A stretch of DNA of 63,480 nucleotides, counting the filler, from Reclinomonas americana ATCC 50394 (Eukaryota): assembly GCA_048213135.1 (NCBI GenBank). It is 9 parts of 9 records of this genome, joined end to end, with 100 filler letters (N's around TTAATTAATTAA, not from the genome) between each part and the next. Parts side by side here need not be neighbours in the genome. Positions count along the whole stretch, not along the records: positions 1 to 14,946 come from AFZH01019600.1; positions 15,047 to 19,832 come from AFZH01019602.1; positions 19,933 to 21,931 come from AFZH01019603.1; positions 22,032 to 30,960 come from AFZH01019604.1; positions 31,061 to 36,968 come from AFZH01019605.1; positions 37,069 to 53,900 come from AFZH01019606.1; positions 54,001 to 59,150 come from AFZH01019609.1; positions 59,251 to 61,644 come from AFZH01019610.1; 1 more part is not named here. One strand, given 5' to 3'. The notes beneath the pieces were generated by a model, which made no database searches, was not told where the DNA came from, and worked only from the letters and a program-made list of their open reading frames with translations. Of this stretch, positions 1,179 through 63,480 are shown in pieces (position 1 is the stretch's first letter; each line of letters begins with the position of its first letter). The position numbers and the translations under genes are program-made.

Positions 1179-1808
1179 ATGTCGAGCGACTTCCCCGACG
1201 TAAGCTCATCGCCCTTTGTGCCACAGCCGCAAACGCCTGCGGCACACGAGGCGGCGCAGCGAGATGTGGAGGTTCGTGATATGTCTTACATCGACCGCCG
1301 ACACTCACTTTGTACTTTGTCTCCAGCACATTCGCACTCTCCGTCCGCAATACATGGCCAGTGGTGTGTGTGTGTCTCTCTCACTGACCTCCACTGTCGA
1401 TCCGGGCTCACTGCTGCGCAGGGTTAACTGGTGCGGTTGCCGGTGGAGCCACCAGCTACGCACTCTTGCGCTTTGTTCGTTGCGTCCAGTATTCCTCTCG
1501 CTCTGCTCCGCCTCCCTCTATCTCTCTCTCTCTCTCGCCGACTCACCACCACTGCAGCACGTTTCTCGCGGCTGGCCGACCGTCGCGTTCCAATTGTCAT
1601 TGGTGAGCTGTCTCGGAGATTCTCTCGTCATCGCGCGCCCTTCTGCTCACATGATGCCGCCTGCAAGGATCGTCGGTGGTGGGCGCGCTCGTCACCTCCT
1701 ACATCGCCGGACGCATGTACACCACGGCCCTGCGGGATGCGAAGCTGCGCCTGCAGGAGTACGACAGTCGTCTCCGCTCCAGCGGCAGCACATCGATGCC
1801 GCACTGAC
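1179..1808 (+). CDS. Small two-TM membrane protein, paralog B (spliced, ~5 exons)
   Basis: Spliced product MSSDFPDV...LRPQYMASGLTGAVAGGATSYALLRFVPRFSRLADRRVPIVIGSSVVGALVTSYIAGRMYTTALRDAKLRLQEY...*. It shares motifs and approximate intron positions with 381-1016. Confidence 0.65.
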
Positions 1809-1883
1809 ATGCACCGCACCGATCGATCGTCTTCGCCTTTGTACACATTGTTCAAATATTGCGATTAAAAGAGAGGCAGCACT

Positions 1884-2049
1884 GTCAACAAGTGTCACTC
1901 CCTGTTCCTCCTCCCACCGCCATCGCCACAGCAGCAGCGGTCTCGGAGAAAATAGAGAAAAGCTGTCGCGACAAGAATCGCAGCGCCGTGTCTCTGCGCG
2001 GATCACCGAGCGGCCATGCCGCTGCCACCAGCGCGACCCGGACGACAAC
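1884..2049 (+). repeat. Direct repeat, left (decayed) copy of the GT61 5' region
   Basis: gtcaacaag...caccgccatcgccacagcagcagcggtctcgg...aaaatagagaaaagctgtcgcgaca...gtgtctctgcgcggatcaccga...gcgcgacccggacga recurs at 5868-6068. This copy has two short deletions. Confidence 0.9.
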
Positions 2050-2232
2050 TGCAGGATTAGATAGCACTCTAGCAGTGTTATTTTTCATCCCAAAAGCAAC
2101 ATGTTAACAGGATAATCGTGATCCCGATCGATATCATGATATCGATGCAAAAAAAGTAACAGCTGCCTTTATGACCAAGTCCAACCACATCCAAACAAAG
2201 AAAAGAACAGGAACATCTTGCCCCTCTCAAAT

Positions 2233-4958: not shown

Positions 4959-5008
<50 letters not shown>

Positions 5009-5754
5009 GTGTGCGTGTGCGTGTGCGTGTGCGTGTGCGTGGGTGGTGGGGGGTGTGGCTTTGTGGAGTTGATGTCTGATGGTCCATTTCTAGAGTCAAC
5101 CACACGCATACGCTGTTCCCGACGCCGTTCTGGTGGCATTGGTCGAATTCGGCGCAGGCGAGGAGGATAATGAGCTTTTTGGAGAGGCCACCGCGAAACA
5201 CCATCTCGTCGCCTTGGATCTGCGTGCCCAGGGTCGACAAGAACACGAGTTCGCTGTGCACCTGCTCTCGGTTGCTGTTGAAGAAGGCTTTCCTTTCCTG
5301 GAGGAAGATCAGCGTGATAAGTGCATGGCCCTTCTGGCGTACCACTTGCGCGATCTGCTGAGCATGCCCGACTTTGTGGCAAGACTAACAGAATTCGAAA
5401 GTTGCGTCATCCACCACGCTGTGGCCCTCGATTTTATCCGCGCTGACTCGTGGTGCACTGATACTCGCAGTTGACGTTTTGAAGAGCGTGCGTATGGATT
5501 GCGAGTTCTTCGCTAATCCCAAGCTTGACGCCGCGACACTGTTCAGTCCAGACGGCTTTGCAGTTCTCCACGGACTCGGGGAGAGAGTCCACTCCGGCAC
5601 GTCTAAGTTCGCCAAAGATGTTCTCAAGTGCATGGAGGCATTTGCCAGTAGTTTGCCCGAGGGCTATATCCAATCCCAGCCGATCATCGGAGCGTGGGAG
5701 ATGCTGTTAGAGCAGTGCCGCTCGTTTGATGCTCGCAGCGATCCCCACACGTGA
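4832..5754 (+). CDS. Orphan 3-exon protein, divergent from the 2233-4725 gene
   Basis: MSIAHTAAASSAGPAGYVASE|SQPHAYAVPDAVLVALVEFGAGEE...RLTEFE|IDVLKSVRMDCEFF...SDPHT*. Intron 1 holds the GT repeat and intron 2 starts at 5401 (GTTGCGT). Confidence 0.55.
4961..5040 (+). repeat. (GT)n/(GTGCGT)n microsatellite, intronic
   Basis: Directly visible tract. Confidence 0.95.
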
Positions 5755-9115: not shown

Positions 9116-10493
9116 ATGGCAGCTGCATCAGTGGGCGAGGGAGAGAAGAGTGCATCGCGTGAGCAGGTGGAGCTCATTGCAGCTGCGGATGAGTTCTTTC
9201 GCGTGTCCACACCTCCACGTTGCACAGACGAGGTCTGTGTTTGTGCAACAGCACGCGCGCTTATCTCCTTCACTGATGTGCACTCTCTTTCGCTGCATCA
9301 GCTGCGGCAAGAGGTGGAGGCCTTTTGCAGCATGCACGCTGCGAGTGGTCGCCGATTGGTGTGTGTGACCAGTGGAGGCACCACTGTGCCTCTGGAGCGC
9401 AACACTGTGCGCTTTATCAGCAACTTCTCGTCGGGGACACGAGGCGCAGCCTCAGTAGAGTTAAGAGAGAGACACGCACACACACAAAGAGAGACTTTTG
9501 TGCTCATTGATTGATATCTTTTGATTAGGTACTTTATCCGAGCTGGCTATGCTGTGGTGTTCCTCAATCGACGCTTCTCGATCCAGCCCTATAACAGGCA
9601 TATTCTCGAGGCGAAAACGAACGTATTAGACTTGGTGCGAGTCGACGAGAGCGGGCGCATCGTTGGTGTGTGAGGGAGACATTGTTGGCGAGGCCAGGTG
9701 ACATACAATACCTACTGGTGTGTATTGCAGTGTCGGAGGAGACGCAGCATACGCAGTTCCCGCGAGTAGTGGCCGAGTACCACGAGGCCATGTCGCAGAA
9801 ACTGCTGCTGCGGGTGCCGTTTGAGACGGTGTTTGAGTACTTGTTCTTCCTGCGCGTGGTTTGTGAGGCGTTTGCGCCGCACGGTCGCTCGACCATGGTG
9901 TACTTGGCGGCGGCTGTCTCCGACTTTTATGTTCCCGAGGCAGCCATGGTATGCACGTGTGCGTGCGTGCCTGTGTCGTTGTTGTGGTCGTGCCCTCATG
10001 TGTGGCGCGCAGCCCGAGCACAAGATCCAGTCGTCGGCGGGACCGCCACCGATTGCGTTGCAGGAGGTGCCGAAGATGCTGCAGATGATTCGCTTTCGCT
10101 GGGCGCCCGAGGCCTATATTGTGTCCTTCAAGGTGAGGTTCATCGAAGAGGGGAAAGGAGGAGACGACGGCCTCACTCAATCGCGCCGCAGTTGGAGACC
10201 GACATTTCGTTGCTGGAGAAGAAGTCGCGCGACGCCATTGCACGGTACGACGTGAATAGCGTGGTGGCCAACATGCTGCAGAGCTACAAGGAGTGGGTGG
10301 TGGTGTATCGCGCCGACGGTGGCGAATCACGATTGTCGCGAGTAGATGGCGAGGAGCTGGAAAAGGTGCCTGCACAGCCGGCTCGTGCGCGAAAGCTGCC
10401 AACTCACGTGCATGTGTTTTTTTCCCGCAGCCCCTGGTGCACACGCTCGTGCAGTTTCACGACGACTGGGTCCTCACTGGCGAGACGACGTAG
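9116..10493 (+). CDS. PPCS: Phosphopantothenate--cysteine ligase
   Basis: [59 protein letters not shown]; several GT-AG introns. Confidence 0.92.
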
Positions 10494-10562: not shown

Positions 10563-12007
10563 TCACGCGTCACTCGAGGAACCCGATCCGCTACCGTACC
10601 CACCGAGGCCGAGCAGTGCTTCTGACGGCTCCGCACCTGCAACGCATAGCACGTCAGTGTCTTCCCCCGTGAGTGGAATTGACCATTGTGGTACACGCAA
10701 CTGACTGCCGACTGCACCGGCGGCGGTGGTGGCGCTTTCGGCTTCACCTGGATGGCGATCTTGACGCCGGTGGCCTTGGGTTTCGCCAGCACCAGTGTGG
10801 CGTTGCCGATCTTTGCTCGTTTCAGTGCCGGCTCTCCGCTGTCCGCTGCGCTCTCTTTGGCCATCTCCAGCCCCTCGGCCATCATCGTTCGTTTCTGCGG
10901 CCGCAACACGAGTGAGAAAAACACCGTTGCCAAAAAGGATCCGGTGCTGCATCTCCAACTCACCCTGCCCTCTCCAGCACCGTCGCCATCGTCGCTCTCC
11001 ACACGCTTCACAATCGGCTGGTTCTCCGGGTCAAAGTACGAGCGCGCCAGCATCTCATCCTCCATCTCGATGCGGGCCAGCTGTTCACGACGCGTGAGAC
11101 GACGATGCATTTGCAGCACAACGACAACACAGAACACTCACCAGCTCCTCATACTTTTTCCGGTGCATATCGAGCAGAGTGTCCGTGTCGACGCGCGCAT
11201 GCAGCGCATTCATCGAGCGGATCTCGTCGAGCTTGTCCAGCATCTCTGCAACACATATGAGTTCAGCAAGCAGCCTCAACACAATGTGGAGACCAGCACG
11301 CACCCATCTCCGCCTTGGAATCAATCGTCCGACTCTCCAACAGCTTCATCGCATCGACCTCGTCCAACTTGGCGCCCGCCTCACGCTCCAGCTCCTTCTC
11401 GCGATGCTCGACCCACGGCTCAAAGTTCCGAATGCACCCCGCCTCCGCAATGTAATCGCTGTTCTTCGGATCGGTCTTGATCGTGAACTCGCCCGCACAC
11501 ACCGGACACCGCATGTAGAAGCGGAAGATGCGCAAGCCGAGGTAGTCCTCGCCTTGCACGGTTTCCTTTCGCATAGGATGAGCAAGCTGCATTGAGACTG
11601 TGTGTGTGTGTGTGTGTTGTCTCGAGCAGACCTTTCGCGAGTTGAACTTTTTGCCTGCGCCCATGTACTCTCCACACGTGGAGCAACGCAGACTCATCGG
11701 CAACATCATGCGCACAGTGACTTGCATGTCTTTGGGTCGCCGAGTGCGAGGCACAAGTGCCGGCTAACAAAAAACAAGTGAGAGAGAGAAGTAGTCACTC
11801 AAGAGGGAGCAAGCGCGTAACATCAAAGTCCGCTGCAGTGAGAGAGAGAGAGTGAGCAGAGAGAGAGAGAGAGATGCATTTTCGCGCGCGCGCAACGCAA
11901 CGTGGATAGTACTTTTGAATAACCTGCGCTCACACACACGCACAATGGTCAGTAACGCACACACTCTCACACTCTCACGCACACAAACGCACCTTGCGCT
12001 CGCCCAT
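10563..12007 (-). CDS. YJU2: Splicing factor YJU2/CCDC94 (Cwc16)
   Basis: Spliced MGERK|VIQKYYP|PDFD|PALVPR...VRMMLPMSLRCSTCGEYMGAGKKFNSRK|ETVQGEDYLGLRIFRFYMRC...KTDPKNSDY. Confidence 0.92.
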
Positions 12008-12236: not shown

Positions 12237-14570
12237 ATGTTGGGGGGCGCCAGCGGTCACTCCACCAGCGGTCTTCCTGCCGGTTTCTACCGCACAACTG
12301 TCGAGTATCGTGTGCGCATTACGCGCGTGCGACAGCAGATTGTGCGATCAGGTGAGTGAGAGTGAGAAAAAGTTGACTGCACTCTCTCCTGTCTCTCTGT
12401 CTCTCACGCGCATTTGTGCGTAGACTGGGTGCTTCCCGAGCGCTACGAGCTCACCTCTGTGCTGGGCTCTGGCGCATTTGGTGTTGTTGTGTTGCGTTGT
12501 TTTCATCACACAGTGTCTTTCTTTGTCTCTCTGTGTGTGTGACTCTTTGTGTGTCGCAGTGCGGCGCTTGATAAGGAGAGTGGGCGACAGGTGGCTGTCA
12601 AACGCGTGGAGAATGCCTTTCGCTCGGCCGCAGAAGCCAAGCGGTTTGCCTTTGTCACTCTCGCAGTCAACCCCCCATTCTCATCCTTTTTCTGACACAT
12701 ACACACACAGCTTGTTGCGCGAGTTGAAGATCTTGCGACACATGCATCATGATAACGTGCGTCGCCTTCTCGTTGTATATATCGACAAGGTCGACATTGA
12801 CATTTCTTTTGCGTGACAGATCATTCGACTGGTCGACATGGCAAAGCCGACTGCGTATGCCGATTTTCGGCACTTGTACTTTGTGTTTGAGCGCTGCCAT
12901 GTCGACTATTCCACGTTGCGACTCTCGTGTCCGTTGATATCGGCCGCTCTCGTCTCTCATGCGGCGATTGCAGGGTGCTCAAGTCGCCGGTTCCCATTAC
13001 GGAGGATCAGCGACGGCGCTTCCTCTATGAGATGTTCAAGGCGCTCAAGTACATTCACTCGGCCAATGTGCTCCACCGTGACCTGAAGCCCGGTAATATT
13101 CTCACTACGGAGGAGGGCGCCATCAAGCTGTGCGATTTTGGGCTGGCGCGCTCCGTCAACCATCAGGGCGAGGATCGGTCGTCGCCCGAAATGACCCTCT
13201 ATGTCGTTGCGTCCCTGTTGCCGTGGTGTCTGTATCTCTGTGATGCTTACTCTCTAAGAAATTCGAATCGTTAGGTGACACGGTGGTACCGTTGAGTATC
13301 TGTACGCTTTGTCTCGTGCGTGCGTCAATGTGTGCTCACCACAGGCAACCTCGCACAGGCGCTCCGGAACTGCTGCTGTTCTTTTCGCGATACACCACAG
13401 CAAATATCCTTATCGTTATCATCAAGCTTGCTGCTCTTCTTCTTCTTTGTCTCCGTCCTTGACTCACAGCTCGGGCGTGTCGCACTCGACGTGTGGTCGG
13501 CTGGGTGCGTGAACTTCCTGTTTCTCCTTCACTCCGCCTCCGCCCTTGCACTGAACAACTTTTTCCGTGCAGTTGCATCTTTGCCGAGACGTATTTGCGG
13601 TCGCCGCTCTTCCCGGGCTCCACTCGTTGCGTTTCTCCCCAACGCCCACTTCTCCGCCTCCGCCGTCATTTGTCGCTCACTGGCAGAGTGCAGAGCTCAA
13701 CCAAATCACCACCGTGTTCAACCTGATCGGGACACCGAGTCAGGAGGAGGTTGATGAGATTGGCTCGGCAGAGGTTACGTGCATGTGGTTCGACTCGTGA
13801 GTCCGGCGCGGTCGTCCTCATCTCTCTCTTCGCACAGGCAAGACAGTGGCTGTCTACGCAACCGAGGAAAGCACGGAGCTCATTCGCAGCCAAGTTCCCA
13901 CAAGCGCCAGACGAAGGTACTTGCTTCATCATCGTCGCAGTCTCCTTTTTCTTCACGTGGTTCTCATCTTGTCCGCGGCAGCCATTGATCTGCTGGAGCG
14001 CATGCTGGTGTTCCACCCGTCGAATCGCATCTCGGTCGACGACGCTCTTGCGCACCCCTATTTTAGCTCGATTCGTGATCCCGCGTCGGAGACTACGGCG
14101 CCCAGCACGCTCAACTTTGAGTTTGAGCAGCAGGACTTGACGCAGGAGACTGTCAGAGGTCCGTCTCTTTTTTTTTTTTGCCTGGCGATGTGTGTCTCTT
14201 CCCCTCTCATCATGCCGCAGAACTCATCTGGCACGAGATCGCGTCGATGCATCCCGACCTCGTACCGCTCGGACCCACACCACCGGAGGGTGCCGCCGCC
14301 ACCGACGCTCCTCCCGAGGTGGAAGCCGCCGGTGGCTCCGGTTCCGCGCCACCAGAGTCGGACGCAGACACCGGAGCCACTGACGACGGCAGCTCCAGCG
14401 CAGCGGCCGACGGCGGCGGAAGCAGCAGCAGCGGCAGCTTCCTCAGCCCGATTTTGCCCACGCCTCCGCCACCGCCCATGGCGACAGATGCGGGCTCGCC
14501 ACCAGCGGACCCGCTGTCGCTTTCGTCGTCAGACTACGCAACACCACCGCCGCCTCCAACATCCGTGTGA
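12237..14570 (+). CDS. Mitogen-activated protein kinase (TLY activation motif), Pro/Ala-rich tail
   Basis: GSGAFGVV, AVKR, LRELKILRHMHHDNII, HSANVLHRDLKPGN, DFGLAR, MTLYVVTRWYRAPE, YTTAIDVWSAGC, RISVDDALAHPYF. Confidence 0.92.
13404..13485 (+). other. U12-type (minor spliceosome) AT-AC intron
   Basis: 5' ATATCCTT at 13404, branch-like TCCTTGAC at 13456-13463, 3' AC at 13484-13485. Removing it restores YTTA-I-DVWS. Confidence 0.9.
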
Positions 14571-17525: not shown

Positions 17526-17616
<91 letters not shown>

Positions 17617-22113: not shown

Positions 22114-22117
<4 letters not shown>

Positions 22118-22129
22118 CCTCCCGAACAG

Positions 22130-43000: not shown

Positions 43001-46000
43001 AACAGGTCGCAGTGTTGTTGCCGTACTGAGCCACATTGCCGCTGAACGATAGCCCCAGCAGCGTGGCCCAGTTCGGCGACAGGGCCTCCACGAAGCTGTG
43101 CATGACGTCGAGCGACGACGGATCACCCAGCGCGTTCCAGAAGAGCGCACCGCCACCACCGCCACCGACAAGGTCTCCAGCGCCCGTCAATACGGCAGAG
43201 TTGTTCACAAACTGTGACTGCTGCAATATCAAGCCCAGCGCCACCACATCGCCAGGTCCGACACTCCACTGCTCCGCATCAAGGGCGGTCATGTTCACAG
43301 AAATGGCGCCACCGCGAAGCGCGCTATTGCCAGTGAATGTGCATCCCATTACTGCAGCTTGCAAACTGGAGGAGAGAGACATGGCGCCGCCGTCACCCGC
43401 GAACGCAGTATTCCCAACAAAAGATGAGCCCTGCAACAGTAGTGACCCAGTCCCGGTTGCCATCAGTGCACCGCCCACATTCACGGCCGCGTTGGCGTTG
43501 AACTGCGAGCCGATGATGCGGACAGTCGACTGATTCTGCACGTATGCGGCAGCACCTGAGGCAGCCGAGTTGCTGCTCAGCTGGCTGTTGGTAACATTGA
43601 CAAATGCGGTTTCGGTGATCGACAATGCGCCACCAGCTTCGGCCGACGACAACTGCGCCGACGAGCCAGAAAGCTGGACAGCAGACGCGCCACCGGCATA
43701 CAGCATACCGCCCTGCAAGTCGGCCGAACCTTGCAAAAATGTGCTGCCGGTATCTGTGTTTGCGAGTACATCGTTTCTCAGCCGGTGCCAGTCATCATCT
43801 CACATGCATCAAACTGCGCTGTGTTGATTACCTGTCCACGTGCTGAGACCGGCCATGTACACGTGCCCGCCATTGGTGGACGCACTGTTGGAGAGCAAGC
43901 GACATCCGTTGCTGGAGATCTCGGCCAGTTGCTCGGCAAACACACCACCGCCGCCAAGCTGCAACGCCGACACGCACATCATGATGAGAAAGACAGAGAC
44001 AATCAAATGTCACCACCAAGACTGAACGCACCGTGGCCACATTACTCTGCAGCAGGCAGTCGGTGAGCGAAAGTTGCGCGGAACCGGTCACATATGTCGC
44101 GCCACCGTCGGCCTGACAAGAAATGAGCGCACAAGTAGCGTGTGCAAAAAAAGTGAGGCAAGGCGTACGCACCGACGTTGCGGTGTTGTTGACCAGCTGC
44201 ACGTGGGTGAATGAGGCGACGCTCAAGTCGGCCAAGAATAAGCCGCTGCCGAACTGCGCCCGATTGTTCTGCAGAATGGAGTCGCTGGCGACCACCGACG
44301 CGGACGAGGCAGAGAAAATCGCACCGCCGAATTCGCCGGCCTCGTTGTTCGACACCTGGGTGTTGGATGACAAGACGACTTGCGACGATGACGACGCGTG
44401 GATAGCGCCGCCATTCAGTGACGCGCGATTGTTCACCAACTGGCAGTTGGAAAACGTGATTGCGGAGTCGATAGCGATGAGGGAGACCGCGCCGCCAAGG
44501 ACTGCTGCACCGTTAGCCAGCAGTGTGTCTACAATTGTGGTATTCGTGGCCACCGACACGGCTGCAATGCCGCCGCCGCCGGTGCCGCCAACGGCTGTGT
44601 TGGACAGGATCCTGCAAGACAGGATGGAGCCACCACGACCAATGAGACCGATTCCACCACCGCCAGTTGTGGAAGTCACCGTACTGTGTGCAACAGTCAG
44701 TCGTACGAATCGACGCGAGCACGGGTGCGGGGAAAGAGCATGGCGAAACTTGGAGACGATTGAGGCCCATCTGAGCAGTGAATTGGTGCCGAGGAGGACC
44801 GCGCCACCGGCAGCAGGGCCAAGTGGACTCTGCACCACATTGTACATGAACGTGCTATTGTGGCACAAAGATTGTGTGTCGAGAAGGAGTGCTCCGCCTG
44901 CGCAGCGGTGGCCGAAGAAAGGTGAGCAGTCGGTCGCCCACACAAAGCACGCGCAAACACATTCGCCACCTCCATTGGAGTGGCCGGCGCTGATTGCCGT
45001 CGACGACAGCTGCAGCGAGTTGGACAGGAATGTGCATGCAGTAACTTTTGCTCCATTGTAGGCCAGCAACGCACCACCTGCACACATTCACGGATGCACG
45101 TTAGGTTTCACGAGATCTACAAAGCGGTTGCGCACGGCACACGTACCGCCATTGCTATCGCCGGAGATGAAGTGAGCAGTCGTGTTGACAGACACGCGTC
45201 CACCAACACCCGGATCAATGGCGATGTTGTAGAGGAAGGTACTGTTGGTGATGGTCGTCCCGCCCTCCGGCACAGTCATTCCGCCTGCGATTCGACGAAT
45301 GCCGTAAAGTGAGCGGGACGGCGAGCCAGACAGAGGATTGCCAATAGCGACTCACCACCACCGTTGTGATTAGAGCCACGAGAGTCAACGCTGTGCACAC
45401 ACAGAGAGAGAAAGAGATATGCCAGATGAAAAAACAAGAGAGCCAAATCAGAAAGACAAGGACAACAACACAACACACCGCGCAAAGTCTCCACCGGCAC
45501 CATCGCGGATGCTGTAATTGGTGGTGAACGTTGAGTTGACGATGAGAAGCAGGTGATTTGCATTCTCGTAGGCGAAAATGAGCGCGCCACCTGCGAGCGA
45601 GCGTCAAGTCACCGACGACGCAAGTTTACGAGAGAAGGATGACGCACCGCCGCCGTTGAAGCCGCCCAACGAGCTGCCGAACTGTTCCGCATAATCGCCT
45701 CCGCTGCCGTTGTCCATCGATGTGTTGTTGTAGAAGACGAGCGATGACAGAGTCTAAGCAGGACAATGAGAGATATTGCCAAACAGCTCCTGAGCGAAAC
45801 ACAGGTGCGTCTACCAAATTGGAGGCACCGGAGATGCCCAACAACAGCCCTCCGCCGCCGTTCCAGCTGCTGTTCGACTGCCCAAGCAAACTGTAATTGC
45901 CGCCACGGCCGTTCTGAGTGGCCCGGTTGTTGGCAAAATACAGATTTGACAGCGTCGTCTGCCACACCACACAAGTCAGTGGTGCGTACGATAAAGCAAA

Positions 46001-49000
46001 TATTGGCCCACAAAAAAAACTGTACCTCGTAGTTGGTGAGCAGCAGCATTGCACCACCGCCGTTCGAGTTTTGCGAGGCACTGGCTGTGTTGCCGACCTC
46101 TCGGAGTGCGCCAGATCCATTCCCGATGGCAGCGTTGTCGAGAAACGAGGTTCTCGTAATCGTCTATGCGAACCACGCAACAACTCAGCAAGTGATAGAC
46201 ATACTCTCGACACGCGTGCATTTCGCACTGACCAACGTGCCCTGCGACCTGTAAATTCGGTGGTGTAAGAAACAGAACGAGACGAGCGACTGCGATGCCG
46301 AAGAACGGAAAGACGCAACCCACGCATGTACATCCAGAGTGCGCCTGCAGAAGAAAACACAGTAAACAACAACAGTGAGCACGGCATCAACAGATTCCGA
46401 TCGTCGTTCAGCAAGACTTCTCACCGCCCCCCGTCTGTCCTGATTCGCTGTTGCCACCGAGTACGTTACCGTTGCCGCCGACTGAGCAGTAGATGACTGA
46501 ATTGTTGCGAAATGTGCAATCGTACACGGTCTGGCGATGCTGCACATGAGTACGAAAGGCGGGAAGGAGTGACACACACATACAAACCATATATCCGGTG
46601 GTCCCAGAGCCAACAAATGCCGCTCCCTGCAACGTCGTGAGATGCCGGATTGTTGTGTATGCTCACGCGCAGAAACAGAAGAAACAAACACAACTCCTCC
46701 GACACTGCCGTTGTTGGCAAATCCCGCGCCGTTGACGGTGTTGGTTCCGCCACGATTGTGCCATCGTACAATGTTGCCAATCCACGTGATGTTTGCCATG
46801 ATCTGCGTTGACGAAGGTGGAGAGTTACAAGAGCGGCACGCATGCAAGACTATTCGTTACCGTGGCACGGTCCACAGCACATACCAACGCAGACGACGAT
46901 GCCGTGTAAAAGTACAAGCCGCCACCGCCTGCCAACACACAGTCAGTAACACACAGTCTGACCAGTAGTGCGAACACACTCACTCACCTCCGTTGCCGGC
47001 TGACGCCGAACTGTCGGCATAATTGGCATTGCCGCCACTGGCACATGAATCGACGAGGTTGTTATTGATTGCCGAGTTGTACATGAACTGCAATGTGTGT
47101 GTGCGCGCGAAGTAGGTGAGATTTCTTATCTCTGGGGCACTCGTCCCCGACATACGCACGAGGCTGCCGCCAGTCTGGAAGTCGCAGTACAAAGCGCCGC
47201 CACCAACTCCAATGGCGTCCGACCCTCCGGTTCCTGAGTTATTGTTTCCACCATTGCCGCTCGTGGCCACGATATTTGCCGAGAACTCGGAGGCCGTAAC
47301 GTTCTGCGTCGAGTGCGCAGAAACTGAGGATGACAGAGAGAGAGAGGGACGGACATGCGGATACGGATCGTGACGCAGCGCACCATTTGGCTTGGGCCGT
47401 TTTGCGTGTAGAACAAAATGGCCCCACCGCCGACCGAGTCCGTGTCACTGTTGCCTCCCTGGAAGCAACCGCTGCCGCCGTTGGCGGCGTTCACCACCGA
47501 GTTGCCGAGAAACTGCGATGACTGCACATACTGTACAAGAGAGAGCGTCAATAGGCAGCCATGCAGCAGCCGTGATCATGCAAAGACTGGCCAACCATAC
47601 TTCCACCGGCGAGGCAGTAACCCATGAAAGCACCGCCTCCGGCTTCGGAACCCAGAGCGTTGCAGCTGCCGGCTTGAGAGTACGGACCACCGCAACTGCG
47701 CGTAGCCACGGTGTGAGTCGTGCAACCACTACCGTTAGCGAAGCATGGATGGCCACGACGCACGCGATGTTTTGCACAGTGTTTGACGAAAACAGGGAAT
47801 GCGTAACGTACTGCGCGTGGTTGGAGTGATCATCAGCAACCAAGCAAATATGCAAATGAGTATCACAAGATTAACACGCACGACCACTGTCGGTCCGTTG
47901 AACGACGTCAAATAGACTGCGCCGCCTGTGCGTCACACGATGTGTAATGTTTTTCAGCACTCAGCGCATGTATGTGCAGCACAGACGAGGGAAACAACAT
48001 ACCACCAAGTGCAGAGCCTTGCGAATCACTGGCTCCGTTGTTGGTGGAGCCACCATTCCCGTTGCCACTGGACTCGTTGGCAATGAATTCCGAGTCCGAA
48101 AACGTCTGCATGATTAAGCGGTGAACAACAGAGTAGAGCTCACACAGAGTGCACCTGTCAAACACGAACCAAAATGCCACCGTAATTCATGTTCAGGTAC
48201 ATGGCCCCTACGCGCATGACAGAGGAAAACACGCGATGAAAGCGTGCGCGCGCACAAATGCGCACATGTATATATACACACCTCCACCGCTGAGACCACC
48301 AGACGCGGTGACCATGCCTGTGAGCCCATTGAAGGAGCCAGCCGAGGCGTTTCCGTTGGCCTGGTTGCTACGAAATGACGACCCCGTAACCTGGATACAC
48401 GCACGCCTCTCGTTGGCAACGCAAAGCGCAGGCAGTACGCGCAAAAGCACCAACTCTGACCGTAATGTTGCATGGACCGTCGACACACGCAGCCCACAGT
48501 CCACCGCCGCCGGTGAAAGTGCTCGGGATGTACGGGACTTGACCGATCTGCTTGCCTCGATGCAATCAACACACCACTGCTCGGAGAATACCCAGAGGTA
48601 ACAGCAACGCAACGACATCGCCGTGTCCGTTGTTCTTCGATCCACCGATAGCTGTGCGAGACAAGGTGCACGGATGAACGCACGAACCGATGAGGAATGA
48701 AATTGGAGCCAGACGATCACCATTGTTGTTGGCAGCATTCCCCACAAAGGTGCAATTGGCAATCTGTGCCGATTACGTAAGCAAGAGGGATCATGAAACC
48801 AAATGCACATTCCACAGATACACACCGTCATGGCCGCAAGACCGTCGACCCACACACCACCTGATCGCAGTCATTGGAGACGAGTGAGTGTGGATAGCAG
48901 ACGCGTAGGATTGGCGGACACGCGCACACACCGCCACCGCATTGAGAGCCCGAGTTCCCGTCGCCTAGAATGTACGAGCCTCCACCACAATTGTTCGAGG

Positions 49001-53160: not shown

Positions 53161-53877
53161 TTACGCTTCCGGTACAAAGGCAATGGCTGCCCGCAGGTCG
53201 GCCGCAAGCCCTGCCGTCTGGAAGTTCTTGAACTTGTACCTGCATGCATGAACCAATCGTGAGTGACGGGGTTATACGAGAGACGGCGTGGTGCATGCGG
53301 AGACGCACACTTTGCCGGTGCCAAAGTCGATTGTGGTGATGGCATTGTTCGTGGCGTCCGTGCCAATCTGCAGTCGGCACATGTCAGCGGTGCAGTGATC
53401 AGAAATGTGCGTGGTTGTGTCGCTCGCAACAGCAATCCTGCCAAAGTCCGCCAGGTTGATGTTGAACGAGTACTTGGGGTTGATTGGCGACTCATCCTCC
53501 GTCCTGTGTACACGTCACCACGTTAGTCACCGCTGTGCAGTGCATTGCAACAATATCGATCACTGACATGCATTTGCTCACCACGAGACACTCAGAACAT
53601 TGGGCGTGAGAGCGGCACGCTCCAGCCACACCCAGCGCGTCTGCCACTTCTGTGAATGTTTGAAGCATGAGTGTGATGCACGTGGTGGTTCAGGAGGTAG
53701 GCGCGTACGAACATTCTTCAACTTGCCACCGAGCTTCTCGACCTTGTCCTTGGAGAGCCAGGCCTTGCGCTTGTTGCCCAGCAGCACCGCGATGTTGCCC
53801 TGTCCAGCGCCCACAAAGTCTTCTTCCTCCTCATCCTCATCCTCGGCCCCCTCCTCCGTCTCAAAGAAGCCGAGGGC
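53161..53877 (-). CDS. C-terminal PH-like domain of a gene truncated by the gap
   Basis: Spliced KAWLSKDKVEKLGGKLKN|KWQTRWVWLER...LSVSW|TEDESPINPKYSFNINLADF...KVYKFKNFQTAGLAADLRAAIAFVPEA*. Confidence 0.55.
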
Positions 53878-54059: not shown

Positions 54060-57000
54060 GGCGCTGCTTGAGTCGCCCGAACACTGGCACGCACCGTGGT
54101 TATTGCATGTGCCGTGTGGAGGTGGGACTGTAGTCGTAGCTGGCGCTGCCTGTTGTCGTCCGTGATCACCGGCACTTTAGCAGTCCAGAGCATGTCGTAG
54201 TTACAGCAGCTGGCATTTGTGTGATCGCCCGTGTACAGACAAGTACCGTCACTCTCGCACACTCCCTTACAATGCATACGCGATGCACCTGCACAGTACG
54301 CACGTTCCGTGTCTAGAATCTCCTCCTGACATGATGTATATGTGTGCATGCACAGGGGACAGCTGCTGTCCTCGCTGTTGAATGGACCGCTGCGTGCGGC
54401 GCACTTGGTCACCACTCTCGACTTGTCGTACAACGTTGCGCACTCGTTTTCTTCTCCCTCTTCTTCTTTGAGTAGCACCTCATCATCGATTGTGACAGTC
54501 ACTGGGTGTGGACGGTGCTGAGCTGGTGGCACGCTTTCTCTGCGCACCGTCCACCGCGGTCGGCGGCAGCAATTTGCGAGCACTGCTTCTCGCTAGGTGC
54601 AACCTCACGGCCGACGGCTGCACCATTCTGCTGCGTTCGATGGTGAGTGCGGTAACTCCCGTGACCAGCAGCGAAGGCAGTGTGTCCGCAACGACGACAA
54701 CCACCACCACTACAACTACCACTGCCACTACGGCTGCGACGGCCGCAGCACATGTGGGTGACGATGGCTCCGACGAAGACGTCGATGACTCGTCGCCGTT
54801 GCATCACAAAAGAGAGGTGGCGACCCCTGTGACCATCGGTTCGCGACTGATCTCCCTCGACATGAGTGGCAACGGCGCGCAAGTCATGCATGTTGGCATT
54901 GCGTCGGAGCTGGCGACCTGCCATCAAGTGCTGCAGCAGATCACGCTGCTCACACCCGAGCAGGAGAGCAGTTGCGTGTGTTTTTGTTGCGTGCTCGCAC
55001 AATTGATATACTTAATGGCGCCCGCCCTCGCAGGTCTGTCGGTGGGTGAGGCGGCGTGGGTGGATCGCCTGAAGAGTGCGCTGCAGGCCAATGTGCAGCG
55101 GGCGGGTGGTGGTACAGATGTCGGCGGCAGCATGGTACGGCAGGGCTCGATGGGGCGCAATGCGCTGTCATCCATTCGCCGCTCGCTCTCCAGCAGTCGC
55201 ATGAATATTCTCGATCAAGTTCGTACCCATGCCACCAAGGTGCGTTGCCTTGTGCGTCCATTGTTGTTCCAGCCTGAAATTCACGAAGCCGCGCGCAGCT
55301 GGAGCGTGAGCAGTGGCAGCAAGGGGCGGCGAGAGACTCGTCGGCGGAGCACCTCACGTTGAGGCCTGTCTCCGGCGATTTTGTGCTGGTGGAGATGGAC
55401 GATGAGGCGAGGCATGCGCGCCAGACAGCAGCGCAACCGTGGTGACGTAATCTTTGATGTCCGTATTGCGCGTGGTACAACTCTCACGCCGGATTTCACT
55501 CGCAGGGAGTCTGTTGAGCGTCCTGTGTGCAGTTTGTGTCGTGCCAACATTGCCGGCGACGGTACCAGATTACGCGGTGAGTCGAGGAAAAAGAGTAGCT
55601 TCTCCTGGCCCCGGTCTAACGTCCGTCTGCGATGCACAGAGTGCGGCCACTTGTTCTGCAACCAGGTTTGTCGATTTTTTTAATTATTATTGTTGCTGAT
55701 TTGTCTCCTCAGTTGCGAATGTGCGTGCGCAGTGCATCGATCAACATCTCGCCATGACGGTCCAAGTGGCCGAACAGTTCCCCGAGCGGCTTGTGTGCCC
55801 GGCCCCGCAGTGTACCTGTACCATATCAGACGCGGAAATTCGAGCACATCTGTCGCCCCAGCTGCAGCAGCGGTACGACACGCTGTCCATTCAAGCCGCC
55901 ATGCGTGACGCGTTGCGTGCTCGTCGTCCACGTCGATGCGTGTTGCGTGCGTGTGTGTCGCTGACCGCCACTCTTCTTTTCGCAGTGCCTCGCATTCCCC
56001 TGCTGTGGCCGCCTCCATGCCACCACTCCCCGCGGCAGCGCAGCCGCTGCCGGCACCGGCGCTGCCATTGTCTGCCACCGTCATGATGACGCCGCTGCGG
56101 CCATTCCACTTGGCGGGCTTTGACGACGACGATGATGATGACGGCGGCAGTGGCCATATCCGTCCGTACGCGATGACGGCGGCGGATGCCACGTCGCCGG
56201 CGGGTGCCCGTCAATCGGCACCAATGGCATACAATCCGTATGGTGAGTTCCGCGACACGACGTGCGCGATCCAAGGTTTTTTTCGTCAATTCACTGCTCT
56301 CCGACCAGATCCAACTGCCGTGATGCCGCAGCCTGTCGCACGGCAACCCTCGTTCGTGCAGCCTTCACGCAGTGGTTCGTCGGCGAGCTGGCGTGTCTCG
56401 TGTCTCCGTTCTTTCCCCCACTCAAATCTCTCTCTCTCTCTTGTTCAACAGAAGAGGATGCGCTGCTGGCCCAGCGACTGCAGGACGAGGAAGACAGGAG
56501 AATGCGTGAAATTCAACAGCAGCAGCAGCAACAGCAGCAGCGACTGCGACAGCCGCCGCTGCCGCCGCAGCCGCAACCCTTGCTGCAGCAGCATTCGCGC
56601 TCGAGCCTGGGCAGTCGCTCGGCCACTGTCGAAGAGGCCGACAGTGAGCTCGCGGCACAGCTGCAAGCGGAGGAGAACCAGCAGAGCATACTGGCCATGC
56701 GGCGCCCCTCCAGCTCGCTGCTGCCGGTGCTGCCGCGCATTCTCATGCAGCCTGAGGGCACCATCGAAAGCATGCAGCAGCTGCTGGCCGTGCTTCATCG
56801 GCAACACGAGGACATGCGCGAGATCTTTGGGCGCGAGCTGATGCTGGACTCTGACGATGAGCACTCCGAGGCCGACTTTCTCGGACGCGGCAGCATCCGA
56901 CCTCACGAGCCACAGACGTACGAGGAGCTGTTGGAGTTGTCGGAGCGCATTGGGCGTGCAGGCGGCCTGTCAAACACGCAAGTCGACGAGCGTACCCGTG

Positions 57001-57475: not shown

Positions 57476-59250
57476 ATGCAGCGCTATCACCAGCTGGAGG
57501 TGATTGGCGAAGGCTCCTTTGGGCGCGTCTTCAAAGTTGCGTGCACACACACTCTGTGATGTGAGAGAAGAAGACGAGGAAGAAGAAGAAGAAGTCGAAC
57601 TCACACATGATTTGCGCGCGCGCGCTCACAAACAACGAGAGAGATGTCGCTCTCTCACGCACACACACACTCTCTTTGACATTTCGTTGTCTTTTGCTCT
57701 CTCTCTCTCTCTCTGTACTCTCACTCTCCCTGCTGCCCCTCAGTTGTCACACACGCTCTCACTTTCTCTCACTCTCTCTCTCTCTCACTGAACAGGGACG
57801 CATCAAGCACACGGGGCAGATTGTGGCCATGAAGTTCATCACGAAACACAACAAGACAGAACGCGATCTGAAGAACCTGCGACAAGAGATTGAGATCTTG
57901 CGCAAGCTCGATCACCCCAACATCATTCTCATGATTGACGCGTTTGAGACACCCGACGAGTTCTGTGTCGTCATGGAGTACGCACAGGTGAAGCATGAGG
58001 AGCACAAGTCTCTCTCACTCACGCATACACTCTCTCACTGCTATTGCGTGCAGGGTGAGTTGTTTGAGATTTTGGAGGAGGACCAGCAGCTGCCGGAGAA
58101 TGTGGTGCAGTCGATTGCGCGCCAGTTGGTGCGCGCGTTGGAGTATTTGCACGCGAATCGCATCATCCATCGCGACATGAAGCCGCAGAACATTCTCGTG
58201 TCGTCGTCGGGAGTGATCAAGCTGTGCGACTTTGGCTTTGCGCGGGCCATGTCGGTCAACACGATGGTGCTGACCTCGATCAAGGGCACGCCGTTGTACA
58301 TGTCGCCCGAGCTCGTGCAGGAACAGCCGTACAACAACACGGCGGATCTGTGGTCGCTGGGCGTCATTCTCTACGAGCTCTTTGTCGGCCAGCCGCCGTT
58401 CTACACCAACAACATTTACTCGCTCATTCACCTCATTGTCAAGGATCCCGTCAAGTTCCCGCGCAACATGGTCCGCCCCCTTTGCTTTCCTTCCCCCTTC
58501 GCATTCTCCTCTTCTGCGTCTCTCACCTGTTTGTGGGGGGAATGCAGAGTGCCGATTTCAAGAACTTCCTGAAGGGTCTGTTGCACAAGACGCCGTCGAA
58601 GCGACTCAACTGGCCGGCGCTGGCCGAGCATCCGTTCGTGCAGGAGACTGATCAAGAGCGGTGGGTCAACACTTGTACTTTCCTGTCACCGTCGCGAGGT
58701 TTGCGAACTCACTCGCCGCTCCCTCCAGTGCCGACCGTGAAGAGTTGTATCGCAACGATCTCGGCCGGCAACGCCTGCTGCACTTGTTGCGACACCCGCC
58801 ATCGGCATCTCGCATAATACGCTCTCAGGTCTCTGGTGCCTCTGCGTCTGCTGCTGCAGCGGCGGCTGCGTCGGCCAGCGACGGCGCCGTCACCGGCCAA
58901 GTGCCGTCGCTGTCGCTTCAGTCGTACGAGACGCACTCCAACGCGCAACTCATGTCGGCTCGTCAACGCCCGGGAGAGAGCAAGACACGATCTGCGGCCG
59001 CCGCAGGTGGTTCTGGCTCTGCAGCACCTCCGACCATGACAGGTGTGTGTGTGTGTGCGCGTGTATGTGCGGAAATGATCTGGCCTCTTTACTCCCTCTC
59101 ACTGTGCGTGTGCAGTGGACGAGGAGTTGACGGAAATGGAGAGGCAATGCNNNNNNNNNNNNNNNNNNNNNNNNNNNNNNNNNNNNNNNNNNNNTTAATT
59201 AATTAANNNNNNNNNNNNNNNNNNNNNNNNNNNNNNNNNNNNNNNNNNNN

Positions 59251-59312
<62 letters not shown>

Positions 59313-61644
59313 GTCTCGTCTCTTCGTCTCCCTCCCCTCCTCTCCCTCCTCTCTCTCTCCCTCTCCCTCTCCTTCTCCCTCGCCCACTCCCTCTCCCCCT
59401 CTCTCTCCCTCTCCCTCCCCCTCTCCCTCTCCCTTCCCCTCACTGACACGCAATAATGCGGGTACAGATTTGGTAGAGAGCGGATTCCATCCGAATGTGG
59501 GCTCGCTGCTGGTGAGCGTGGCGTACCACTCGCTGCGCAGCATCTCGTCGAGCACCTACCCGGAGCACGTGTGGGAAATGTTCTTCAACGTGTACTCCGC
59601 CGTGTTTGCGCACCTCCCGCCGACGGCCTCGCCAGCCATTCACGCCGACTTGCTGAGGGTGAGCGGCGTGACGAGAGAAGCATGAGACGAATCATCGCGT
59701 GGCGCTGACAGACATGCTCGTGGTGCAGATTGCCGTGCTTATTCTGCGCGCTCTGGCGGCCGACCCAGCCGGCACCGATCGAGCGTACTTTATGGCGGCT
59801 CGCTCCAAGGCCATCAAGGACATTGCGAGCATTTTGGTGGGCGACTCAACCAAGAGATTCGGTGGACAAGGTGTGTGTGCCGCACATCCGCCTCTTTGTG
59901 TTTTTTGCGGGAGATTTTGTTGCCGTACTGATGGCAGTGACAGAGGGTGTTTCGCTGGTTATCGAGGCACTGTCGGCCGCCGTGCACCCGACACACAATC
60001 CCGACGAACTCAGCTCCGAGTTCATTTTGCCATTCCCCTACACCAAGGCCGCAGCTGTACGGGAAACGCGTCGCACCATGAACTTTGATTTGATTGTTGC
60101 GTGCGCCGCCTGCTGTCTGTGCGTATGTGTGCGGTTTGTTCGCGGCTGACCAACCAATGTCGCGCACAGATTCGCAAAGACGTCGGCGACACGTTGCGCA
60201 CGGAGAATGGCCCGCGTGCCGTCCTCGCGCTGTTGTCGACACCGAGGCAGCAGCATGTGCCATTCACCCACCTGCTACGAGTTGCGCCGCTCCTTTGTTC
60301 GTGAAGCGCGTCGATGCCACTGACCACGTTGGCATTTTTCTTTGCATAGGTCGTGTTTCAATGCTGCCGCTTCTCGCCCAAGTTTGGCGTGGAGATTCTG
60401 AAGCTGCCTGGACTGCCGGCGGTCGTCAATTCGCTTCTCAGTTTCGTTGATCGTCACGCTCCCCCATGAGCGCTTGTCATGTACTTTCTGCGCTGACGCT
60501 CTTCTTGTCTCGTTGGTGCAGACGAGCTGGAAGGTGAAGATCTCGGCCTGTTTTTCCACATTGTCTCCATTTTGGTGCTCCTCGAAAGCACACCGCCACA
60601 CAATGCGCGACCAACGTTGCGTGATGACCCGCCGTTTCTTCATTTCATTTCCGTGTCCTTTTGTGGCGTTGTGCTGATGGTGGCGATGACGCAGGCTGTC
60701 GGCTGAGATCGGTGACACACTGTGCCGGCGAGCAGCTGCCTGTATTCGCAACGTGTCGGGCGTTCACCTGTCGCTGCTCATTGGATCCGCGGCCTCGTGG
60801 GCTTTCTCGCGCATTCTCGCGTTCGAGCAGGTGCGTGTGTGGTTAATTCGCAAATTCGCTGACACCTGCTCACTGATGCGCACCGCACCAGAGTACTCGT
60901 CTGCCGGAATCTGTGCCACCGGGAGAACGGCAGGCTGTGGTCACTCGACTTGTCGATCGGTTCTCGCTGACATCCGGTGCCCTCTGGTCGAGTATTGCCC
61001 GGGCGCTGTGCATTGCGGTGAGTGTTTATGTGTGCATTGTGCGCGCGCATATATCGACTTTCGTGTTTTGCTCAAACAATCTGCATCTTTATTATTTCAG
61101 ATCCCTGAGCAGAACCGGCTCAACCGTCTGGAAGGCACTGGCTACGGCTATCCCGACTCTGGTTTCCATGATGGTTTCGCCGCGCTTCTGGCGGAAGCTG
61201 TGGCTCTGGTGCGTCGTGTGAGTGTGGCCAGGAGATCGATGAATACTGATTTTATTTTGGTCGGGGTGTGCAGAAATCGCCGGAGGTGATTGAGACGCTG
61301 GAGACCGCGAATGTCTGGGAGGGCGTGCGGCACTCGATCTGCCAGCTGTTTCCGCCGACGGGTGGCGAGTACTCAACATGCGAGGTACAGGGTGTGCACT
61401 GCGGTTGATGGCGATGAGATGCTCAGTTGTTGATGCCGCGATTATGTAGCTCTCGCCATTTGGTTTGCTGTACGCTGTGCGCTACACGTACGATTACATG
61501 AGCAGCAAGAATGTGGCCTGCGATAGTGTGCTCACCGACAAGGAACTGCTCGGCAACTTGGTCAGCATCCTCAGTCCCGAGTGCTTGCAGGCCATTGCCG
61601 CGTGGTGAGTGACACGAGTCTCTCTTTTTTCCCTGGTGGTAGAG
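57476..61644 (+). CDS. STK36: Fused/STK36/TIO-family Ser/Thr kinase, spanning the gap at 59151-59250; 3' end in next gap
   Basis: [35 protein letters not shown]...LRQEIEIL...[35 protein letters not shown], followed by a helical-repeat C-terminal region. Confidence 0.9.
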
Positions 61645-61979
61645 NNNNNNNNNNNNNNNNNNNNNNNNNNNNNNNNNNNNNNNNNNNNTTAATTAATTAA
61701 NNNNNNNNNNNNNNNNNNNNNNNNNNNNNNNNNNNNNNNNNNNNATACCACTCCAACGCCGCCGCCGCATTGTGCACCGGCAAATGCGGCGTCAACTTGC
61801 TCACTTGAACCTCTGCCATGATAATGTATGCGCGCACTTGAAGTGAGTCGAAAGTGATGGGTCCAGTTTGCCACGAGTTTGCGGGAGCGGGACAGTTTGC
61901 GCGCGACTCGCTCGGCGATAACACACAAAGCATCTTTGCACTTTTGTGAGCGTTTCTCCGTGTGCACTGATCGTCGGGC

Positions 61980-63480
61980 ATGACGCTGCTTACGTGGGTG
62001 AGTAGAGTGGCATACACATAAGCAAAAGTGCGCACACAGAAACGCTTATTATGCGCATGTGTGTGCAGTTGTTGGTGTTGACACCTGTGGTGTTGGCGTT
62101 GCATTCGCTGGTGTGGTACTGGCGCAAGCGCGGTGGCCTTCCCGGACCCACTTTTGTCATTCCGTGGATTGGATGTTAAGCGCGCATTGTCATCATCATC
62201 ATCACATGCATCGGAGTTGACTTTTTCCCTCAGGTATCATTGATCTGGTGATGCATCCGGTGGAGTTCTGGCAAAAGCAGCGTGATTTCGCGCCCAATGG
62301 AGTCTCGGTGAACTACATTCTCGGCAACCTCATGGTCTTCATCACCAACACCGACATGGCCAAGTCGATTTTCCAGCAAATCGATGACTTTGTGGTGCGG
62401 CCTCACTCTCCTTCCTGCTCTCTCTCTCTCTCCCGCACTCTGAGCATGTGTCGCGCTGCAGCTGTACGCGCACCCGAATGCCACGTTCCTCTTTGGCCCG
62501 GAGAACCTGATCTTCAAGGACCCCGATGTTCACCGGTGAGGGCGGACGATGCGGGTCAATGCAGTTTTTGTTTTTTGCACTGATCGTGTGTGTACATTAT
62601 CATGTACAGTCGCTACCGCTCACTGCTCCACAAGGGCATGTTCGGTGAGGAGTCGCTGCACTCGTACCTGGACGGCATGGAGACGTCGATTCGCGAATTT
62701 ATGCGCGAGAAGGTCGTCGGCAAGGAGTTTATTGATGCCCGCCTCGAGCTGCGCTTTGCCAATGCGCTCGCCTCGCAGCGCAGCTTCTGCGGCCCCTACC
62801 TCCCCGAGGTTTGCTGTCTCTCTCTTACGCCCTCCTTTTTTACCCCGTCTTTGCACTCATTTTTTTGTGGCGCAGAGCGTGCGCGGAGAAATGGCCGAGG
62901 ACATTCTCACTTTCACTCAGGGCTTCCTGTGCTTCCCGCTGCCGTTCCCGGGCACCGGTCTCGGCCGTGCCATTGCCGCGCGCAAGCGTCTCCGCGCTCA
63001 TGTGAGTCCTGTCCCCTGTGCTTTGTGGAGGAGAAGGGCGCTTGGCTGACGAGTGCGTTTTTTTGTGTGTGATGCACAGATTATCAAGGCTGTGGAGCTG
63101 GGGTGTGTTGTTGCCTTCCCACTCTCAATCTCATTTGTGTGCTTCCACTCATTTATTTTGCTCCTCATCGCACAGCAAGGAGTACATTGCCAAGGGCGGC
63201 AAGCCGCGCTGCGTGCTCGACTACTGGTGTGTCGAGGCTGAGAAGGTGCGCGCAAATTTCCATTTTTCTCTCCTTGTCGCCCCCGCTTAACCACTGCATT
63301 TCTCACCGCAGCGTGGACCCGAGTACACCGCCGCCGGCATCAGCGACACGGGCACTGAGACGGGCCACATTGCGTCCACGGTCAGCATCACGCTGCCTTG
63401 CTCTCGCAGTTTCTTCAGCATTCTCGCTGACTCATTCTTTTCGTCACAGGTGCTCGATTTCCTGTTTGCCAGCCAGGATG
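61980..63480 (+). CDS. Cytochrome P450, CYP710/CYP61 (sterol C-22 desaturase)-like; runs off the window
   Basis: N-terminal TM, LPGPTFVIPWIGCIIDLVMHPVEFW, LFGPENLIF, FPLPFPGTGLGRAIAAR, PRCVLDYW, VLDFLFASQD. Confidence 0.85.

Follow-up and report, generated by a model that had tools for sequence, protein, structure and literature searches.

The closest described systems come from mammals, in which some 5' splice sites are read by U1, a small nuclear RNA (snRNA), in a noncanonical register. One example is the shifted register (Roca and Krainer, 2009), outlined in passages of a later study (Tan et al., 2016; PMC4856993), in which an extra U comes after the GU and every U1 pair moves over by one position. 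According to the same passages, cleavage stays at GU, U1 merely marks the site for U6, the variety seen in U1 registers need not recur at U6, and the validated noncanonical registers, all kinds combined, account for 1.5% of 201,541 human 5' splice sites. A literature search by literal term matching found no lineage with such a donor class; matches to the GTTGCGT heptamer were primers and unrelated papers, and the shifted- and bulged-register work that it returned was on human only. Here, donors with an extra T after GT are described in Reclinomonas americana ATCC 50394, in one 63-kb stretch of DNA made of nine contigs joined end to end (63,480 nucleotides (nt); the window). Its sequence indicates that the GTT sites, at which the ordinary donor motif is displaced by an extra T at +3, are genuine U2-type GT-AG donors that form a common class, depend on the last exonic base (-1) and are cut before the G of GUU.

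The initial annotation of the window had listed 32 introns with such a displaced motif. A direct read of the sequence found GT followed by T at all 32 coordinates, each with the core, the motifs being 23 GTTGCGT, two GTTGCGA, two GTTGCGC, one GTTGAGT, one GTTACGT, one GTTACGC and two GTTAAG. Its count of sites preceded by an exonic G was likewise exact (three of 32, at 13774, 40555 and 46319; the remaining 29 follow a non-G base). On both strands together, 44 copies of GTTGCGT were observed; dinucleotide shuffles averaged 17.26 +/- 3.73 copies and peaked at 26, and none of 100 had 44 or more. Among sequences of the form GT+N+GCGT, the counts were 44 for T, 18 for G, 9 for C and 5 for A, so that T alone is enriched as the extra base. 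With respect to the predicted genes, 30 of the 44 copies lie in sense, 3 in antisense and 11 outside assignment (binomial p=1.4e-6 for 30:3), and a branch motif plus YAG is found downstream of 27/44 copies compared to 2197/8457 of all GT. That there is no donor class, and that the sites are chance motifs, mis-called junctions or the product of an assembly error adding T to GTGCGT, is highly improbable. Six of the 32 listed sites are unsupported and the assembly is fragmented, as such a view would have it, but the shuffles, the strand bias and ten junctions fixed by homology argue against it. An assembly error inserting T was rejected, since it would not depend on the last exon base.

The homology evidence was obtained with a protein-to-DNA spliced aligner that is donor-neutral, demanding only GT..AG of introns. 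The homologues used are 47-72% identical and come from many eukaryotic groups, with no near-identical match. With GT..AG as the sole requirement, intron removal restored a colinear protein for ten GTT-class introns, all of them listed (Table 1, homology-fixed). In the Yju2 gene, the spliced alignment of 12 homologues reads KYYP/pDFD/PALVPR across two consecutive junctions (a slash marks each junction). In the phosphopantothenate-cysteine ligase gene (PPCS), the exon upstream of the intron at 9460 aligns to 6ai8_A (yeast Cab2) through residue 113, so that its last residue is 114, and downstream the alignment starts at 117 with the second residue of the exon, which therefore begins at 116; the split codon thus occupies position 115, without a gap. 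The conserved protein motifs invoked in the initial annotation held in part: spliced alignments supported those of MAPK, Yju2 and the Fused-type kinase, while the RGS motif found no support, as five exon translations from 59946 to 60830 matched no Pfam family at E values of 1 or less. In the Furry-like gene, six spliced alignments to distant homologues scored 200-287 and were scattered, and only the junction at 29946 recurred (3/6). One exon of this gene (28968-29945, +) is 68% identical to a protein fragment, P0197, with three further fragments in the representative library; given P0197, a fairly close relative is sequenced somewhere. The fragments of this relative did not settle the junctions, and two metagenome scans for relatives' DNA, one with the Furry exon and one with P0197, gave no match.

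Independent of homologues, gene models were built with a donor-neutral gene finder, a Viterbi procedure combining codon log-odds, a branch motif and a YAG acceptor, in which only GT was scored at the donor, without a donor matrix. It predicted 95 introns, many of which are noise, and the most frequent donor heptamer among them is GTTGCGT (10/95). Unsupervised expectation-maximization on the 95 donors, with two matrices and a background, separated a first class, G/GT[GA]NGT (51%; -1 G 0.76, +5 G 0.83), from a second, H/GTTGCGT (23%; -1 G 0.06, +6 G 0.79), where H stands for A, C or T, and left 26% to the background. A further gene finder learned its donor matrix from the same window data, so that its support is circular. 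Eight donors of the same kind were found beyond the 32 listed (marked unlisted in Table 1); two of them have GTTTCGT, which is GTTCGT in shifted form. Other searches were of little help: a permissive intron scan of the window gave about 11,700 candidates and was uninformative, Pfam searches named few genes from open reading frames (ORFs) of at least 150 aa and gave nothing useful for 9 single exons, and an Rfam search of the window returned 0 matches.

To compare the two donor forms, donors with G at +5 were called ordinary (O), and those that start with GTT and carry G at +6 but not at +5 were called shifted (S). In the donor-neutral set there are 45 O, 15 S and 35 other donors, with -1 G in 33/45 O and 0/15 S (p=3.3e-7); in the homology-fixed set, 9 O and 10 S donors stand beside 2 others, with -1 G in 8/9 O and 1/10 S (p=0.0011). 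The dependence on the -1 base suspected in the initial annotation was thus found in both sets. In the merged sets (81 O, 34 S and 39 others), -1 G occurs in 61/81 O and 2/34 S, figures that are partly circular and for which the O set contains 18 GTGTGT-type calls, many probably false. S donors account for a fraction of 0.32 of all S and O donors in the homology and neutral-model sets and of 0.30 with the learned model added, and the earlier description of a mainstream second donor class therefore fits the window, at 30-32% of classified donors. Among donors without -1 G in the homology and neutral sets, 23 are S and 13 are O. The core had been described as moved one base into the intron, and GCGT does stand at +4..+7 in 24/34 S donors; it is stricter there than in O donors (19/81).

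Apart from the donor, S and O introns are alike. The median intron length is 69 nt for S and 67 nt for O, the branch motif CT[CGA]A[CT] is found in 27/30 GTT-class and 48/54 ordinary introns, the branch A lies a median of 17 nt and 18.5 nt, respectively, upstream of the 3' splice site, and acceptor and base composition are similar. Both forms coexist in the same genes, and GTT-class sites are spread over seven of the nine contigs, the two without one being 15047-19832 and 19933-21931. A single dominant heptamer and a uniform intron length could also be produced by introners, that is, the GTTGCGT introns could be copies of a spreading mobile-element family carrying its own 5' end. This origin can hardly be credited, however, given that length, branch motif and composition equal those of ordinary introns and that local alignment of introns with donor and acceptor removed gave a mean score of 7.99 (max 16; 435 pairs) between S introns compared to 7.79 (max 16) between O introns and 7.86 (max 22) between S and O. 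The introner family was rejected, there being no S-S similarity beyond the splice signals.

How a single machinery could accept both forms is suggested by their alignment. The ordinary form combines a final exonic G with an intron that opens with GT[G/A]NGT, typically G/GUGCGU, whereas in the second form A, C or U closes the exon and the intron opens with GUU plus the same core, H/GUUGCGU. Aligned at the first G, GGUGCGU and GUUGCGU differ in one base, and most likely U1 snRNA binds both in one shared footprint. In the second form, the +1 G of the intron would stand for the exonic -1 G and the +3 U for the +2 U, with the conserved G at +6. Cleavage would still be fixed at GU when U5 and U6 act later, and within the footprint it would fall one base upstream of where it usually does. 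On balance, U2-type GT-AG introns with a second donor form read in a shifted U1 register are the explanation that we favour for the whole, if by little more than even confidence, and the register is its deduced part.

The exonic bases are consistent with a shifted register. The -1 base of S donors resembles the -2 base of O donors (A 13/34 vs 29/81, p=0.83; G 2/34 vs 13/81, p=0.22), and C is found at S(-2) in 12/34 compared to 12/81 at O(-3) (p=0.022). These profiles are as expected opposite U10 and G11 of U1 and thus favour the shift, as does T being the sole enriched extra base, because T is needed to pair with A7 of U1. Instead of shifting, U1 and later U6 could keep to the normal register, with C8 facing the +1 G and A7 the +2 or +3 U, and leave one U bulged. 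For human cells, bulges at +3 (or +2) are experimentally established, and the passages cited (PMC4856993) count 68 predicted sites, or 54 after curation. A bulge leaves the +1 G in its usual place, the -1 G exceptions 13774 and 40555 would suit it, and U6 would in any case have to tolerate an extra base for the +6 G to pair with its ACAGA box. We nevertheless consider a bulge distinctly unlikely. It should preserve or raise the frequency of -1 G, which is lost rather than kept and so favours the shift; the bulged base need not be U, yet T alone is enriched; and folding with RNAduplex, where it gave a stable duplex at all, found the bulged register far less often than the shifted one, for 1 compared to 9 of 34 S donors with canonical U1 and for 2 compared to 22 of 34 with hypothetical variants. 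Shifted U1 pairing would accordingly fit the pattern better than a bulge.

Several points weigh against the shifted reading. The sample is a single window of joined contigs. Homology fixes only ten of the 32 listed sites; another ten are supported by the donor-neutral finder, six by the circular learned finder only and six by no model. Two thirds of the listed junctions are based on gene models of this analysis. Of the six sites in no gene model, 1479 and 46319 have a poor coding context, and 39555, 60281, 62175 and 53430 are merely frame-compatible. Canonical U1 offers nothing for the near-fixed C at +5 to pair with, and reading of the ACAGAGA box leaves this C unpaired with canonical U6 as well. 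The strict GCGT core is the opposite of what canonical U1 should prefer (GAGT or AAGT). When folded by RNAduplex against the canonical U1 5' end, taken from a table in PMC4856993, the 34 S donors have a mean free energy of -1.36 kcal/mol, while the nine homology-fixed ordinary donors average -5.32 kcal/mol (range -1.4 to -11.2) and the homology-fixed GTTGCGT donors reach +0.5 to -1.6 kcal/mol in any register. The register calls for the 34 S donors are 9 shifted, 1 canonical and 1 bulged, with 23 that hardly fold; 19/34 are without a meaningful register. At 13291 (GTTGAGT), canonical U1 pairs in the shifted register at -4.6 kcal/mol. The proposal of the initial annotation that the +1 G stands in for the missing -1 G is consistent with the loss of -1 G and with the likeness of S(-1) to O(-2), whereas canonical U1 pairing of the GTTGCGT donors, poor in any register, does not support it.

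A further point concerns the place of the cut. If both intron ends were slid by +1, the usual context with an exonic G would return. At 6/10 homology-fixed junctions the following exon opens with G; the slide leaves the mRNA as it is there, and protein does not distinguish GT-AG from the +1/+1 slide. Two junctions of Yju2 are sensitive to the slide. At 11901, the split codon encodes P and faces P in 12/12 homologues, while the slide would give R; at 11821, the first residue past the junction is P in 10/12 homologues and is compatible with the GT-AG reading only. Both match the GT-AG reading, which places the cut directly ahead of the G of GUU. In the homology-fixed genes, frame ruled out a donor at the second GT of GTTGCGT.

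The poor pairing could point to U1 itself. A co-evolved or second U1 snRNA, for instance with G opposite the conserved C, might read both classes or the GTT class alone, an idea that we regard as unlikely. To our knowledge, the 5' end of U1 barely varies across eukaryotes, and canonical U1 is retained in other GC-rich organisms that use GTGCGT donors. A U1 with a simple inserted A predicts -1 G, which is not seen. Conversely, the homology-fixed GTTGCGT donors bind canonical U1 at about 0 to -1.6 kcal/mol, and GCGT with its +5 C prevails in S donors though C makes up about 0.3 of intron bases. Placing G at position 5 of U1 in hypothetical 5' ends is predicted to lift the mean to -4.91 or -6.46 kcal/mol, with 22/34 donors then shifted and 2 bulged. 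Variant U1 genes exist in human, according to excerpts of two reports (PMC3561869, PMC10870369). Returning to the shifted register, its wider form would be a two-register donor code that holds genome-wide and is set by the last exon base, which would place the GU either as usual or one base further upstream in a constant U1 footprint, with a U1 5' end co-evolved to carry G opposite the conserved C and a target G[G/U]UGCGU; this can be offered as a tentative and rather doubtful extension.

The introns concerned are collected in Table 1. The phase chain 60096(0)-60281(0)-60441(1)-60616(2) is self-consistent. The gene with the site at 62175 may be a cytochrome P450, and a PDB search with the exon after this site gave chance matches to designed repeat proteins only. 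For the exons at 53430, Pfam gave a sub-threshold chance match (12.5 bits vs a cutoff of 25).

Table 1. Introns of the window with a GTT-class donor, grouped by support. A slash separates the last three exonic bases from the intron start; "both finders" means donor-neutral and learned; "unlisted" means beyond the initial annotation.
Group	Junction	Positions	Strand	Gene	Support and remarks
Homology-fixed	aga/GTTAAGAG	9460..9528	+	PPCS	GTTAAG; exon matches to 6ai8_A
Homology-fixed	gat/GTTACGCG	11764..11821	-	Yju2	12/12 homologues
Homology-fixed	cac/GTTGCGTT	11833..11901	-	Yju2	12/12 homologues
Homology-fixed	tgt/GTTGCGTT	12491..12559	+	MAPK	8/8 homologues
Homology-fixed	cac/GTTGCGAC	12915..12973	+	MAPK	8/8 homologues; donor-neutral finder too
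Homology-fixed	gtc/GTTGCGTC	13206..13274	+	MAPK	7/8 homologues; 16-nt exon next
Homology-fixed	acc/GTTGAGTA	13291..13358	+	MAPK (TRWY/rAPE)	GTTGAGT; 7/8 homologues, 8/8 with AT-AC allowed
Homology-fixed	ctc/GTTGCGTT	13626..13693	+	MAPK	7/8 homologues
Homology-fixed	gag/GTTACGTG	13774..13837	+	MAPK	8/8 homologues; -1 G exception
Homology-fixed	aaa/GTTGCGTG	57536..57795	+	Fused-type kinase (GRVFK/GRIK)	12/12 homologues; junction gapless
Gene model	tca/GTTGAGTG	23013..23082	+		both finders; unlisted
Gene model	caa/GTTTCGTT	23338..23401	+		both finders; shifted form of GTTCGT; unlisted
Gene model	gcc/GTTGCGTC	26297..26360	+		both finders; unlisted
Gene model	gca/GTTGCGTC	27761..27831	+	Furry-like	both finders
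Gene model	gct/GTTGCGTC	28746..28825	+	Furry-like	both finders
Gene model	ttt/GTTGCGTC	29946..30031	+	Furry-like	both finders; 3/6 distant Furry homologues, weak alignments
Gene model	gac/GTTGCGTC	31546..31625	+		both finders
Gene model	tca/GTTGCGTA	31824..31912	+		both finders
Gene model	caa/GTTGCGTC	38406..38466	+	ankyrin-repeat gene	both finders; Ank matches in flanking ORF
Gene model	cct/GTTGCGTA	42927..43003	-		both finders
Gene model	aac/GTTGCGCA	54435..54498	+		both finders
Gene model	cgc/GTTGCGTG	55912..55985	+		both finders
Gene model	att/GTTGCGTG	60096..60169	+		donor by both finders; acceptor 60169 (neutral) vs 60349 (learned)
Gene model	tca/GTTTCGTT	60441..60521	+		both finders; unlisted
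Candidate	aaa/GTTGCGTC	5401..5470	+		learned finder only (circular); acceptor ambiguous
Candidate	tca/GTTGCGTG	10637..10701	-	Yju2 tail	learned finder; 1/12 homologues, tail not conserved
Candidate	atc/GTTGCGTC	25060..25120	+		learned finder only; neutral model: in-frame GT 33 nt upstream; unlisted
Candidate	gct/GTTGCGTA	25424..25505	+		learned finder only; neutral model: in-frame GT 6 nt upstream
Candidate	gtc/GTTGCGTC	30805..30869	+		learned finder only; coding scores positive both sides
Candidate	tca/GTTGCGTG	37536..37601	+		learned finder only; unlisted
Candidate	gag/GTTGCGTT	40475..40555	-		learned finder only; frames open both sides; -1 G
Candidate	caa/GTTTCGCC	44612..44749	-		learned finder only; 138 nt, long for window, weak; unlisted
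Candidate	gca/GTTGCGTG	54971..55033	+		learned finder only; unlisted
Candidate	aac/GTTGCGTG	60616..60694	+		learned finder only
Listed site	ggc/GTTGCGTG	39555..39617	+		no gene model; open frames of at least 60 codons both sides, positive coding scores; junction reads GAS-a-VHKAAASG, in ORF with Ank matches
Listed site	cga/GTTGCGCC	60281..60349	+		no gene model; frame-consistent only; neighbouring exons without Pfam match
Listed site	gat/GTTAAGCG	62175..62233	+		no gene model; GTTAAG; downstream exon coding score 15.2; exons without Pfam match
Listed site	gct/GTTGCGAG	53368..53430	-		no gene model; open frames of 28 and 31 codons, small positive scores
Listed site	ttc/GTTGCGTC	1479..1557	+		weak; no gene model; coding scores negative both sides
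Listed site	tgg/GTTGCGTC	46249..46319	-		weak; no gene model; short frames, negative downstream score; -1 G

Additional GTTGCGT copies lie within predicted introns, 3' of the donor in use, at 27436, 54986 and 55942 on the plus strand and at 41169 on the minus strand; those at 54986 and 55942 are 15 and 30 nt downstream of another GTTGCGT. Such intron-internal copies could be alternative or decoy donors. Homology also fixed four unusual donors, all on the plus strand: g/GTACTTG at 13917 (8/8 homologues), g/GTGAAGC at 57988 (12/12), g/GTCCGCC at 58471 (12/12) and g/GTTTGCC at 12644 (8/8). All four follow G, and judged from these sequences the intron side is apparently loosely constrained where the exon provides G at -1.

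The MAPK gene holds two micro-exons on the plus strand, of 16 nt (13275-13290, VTRWY) and 19 nt (13486-13504, iDVWSA), which were missed by the gene finder and recovered by homology. Between its exons also lies a U12-type AT-AC intron (13404-13485, +), which starts with ATATCCTT, the only [AG]TATCCTT in the window, carries TCCTTGAC at 13456 and ends in AC. With AT-AC allowed in the alignment, 8/8 homologues choose 13404-13485, and SRYTTA/iDVWSA is colinear with the homologues. This intron indicates that the organism probably has a minor spliceosome.

The contig 19933-21931, without a GTT-class site, is filled over its 2 kb by one intronless ORF (19933-21861, -) with LGFP repeats (PF08310, E 8e-194, 8 stretches), DUF6330 and DUF7187 and a G+C fraction at third codon positions of 0.77; it looks bacterial, either a contaminant or a transferred gene. 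The contigs are separated by blocks of 44 N, TTAATTAATTAA and 44 N, a six-frame stop linker (14947-15046, 19833-19932, 21932-22031, 30961-31060, 36969-37068, 53901-54000, 59151-59250 and 61645-61744), and real adjacency across the linkers may not hold. Runs of (CT)n or (GA)n stand at several contig ends.

If the two donor forms are what they appear to be, this organism would offer a natural system for how the cleavage site uncouples from U1 pairing, how U6 handles an extra base and how the U1 5' end co-evolves with its targets. In practice, gene finders built on a single donor matrix will get a large part of the junctions in this genome wrong, as a model of this analysis did at the MAPK micro-exons.

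Compared to known systems, the GTT introns share with U12-type introns that both are a second intron class with an extended 5' motif of its own, found in the same genes. They differ in lacking [AG]TATCCTT, the single copy of which in the window (13404) belongs to another intron, and in having the branch motif and spacing of ordinary introns. In ordinary donors, exonic and intronic U1 pairing compensate each other. The same is found here, as the absence of -1 G goes with the stricter intron motif, but by a one-base displacement of the whole motif and not by a stronger motif in place. With the human bulge +2/+3 sites, as described in passages of Tan et al. (2016; PMC4856993), the GTT donors share the GUU start and the conserved G at +6, whereas a bulge predicts that -1 G is kept and that any base may be bulged, and here -1 G is nearly absent and the extra base is T only. 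With the mammalian shifted sites (Roca and Krainer, 2009, as outlined in passages of PMC4856993), the GTT donors share the extra U after GU and the cut at GU. The core differs, being GCGU here and poorly paired by canonical U1, and the human-type AAGU core is present only twice (GTTAAG at 9460 and 62175). Displaced donors that are rare in humans thus look routine in this window, where they make up about three in ten of the classified donors.

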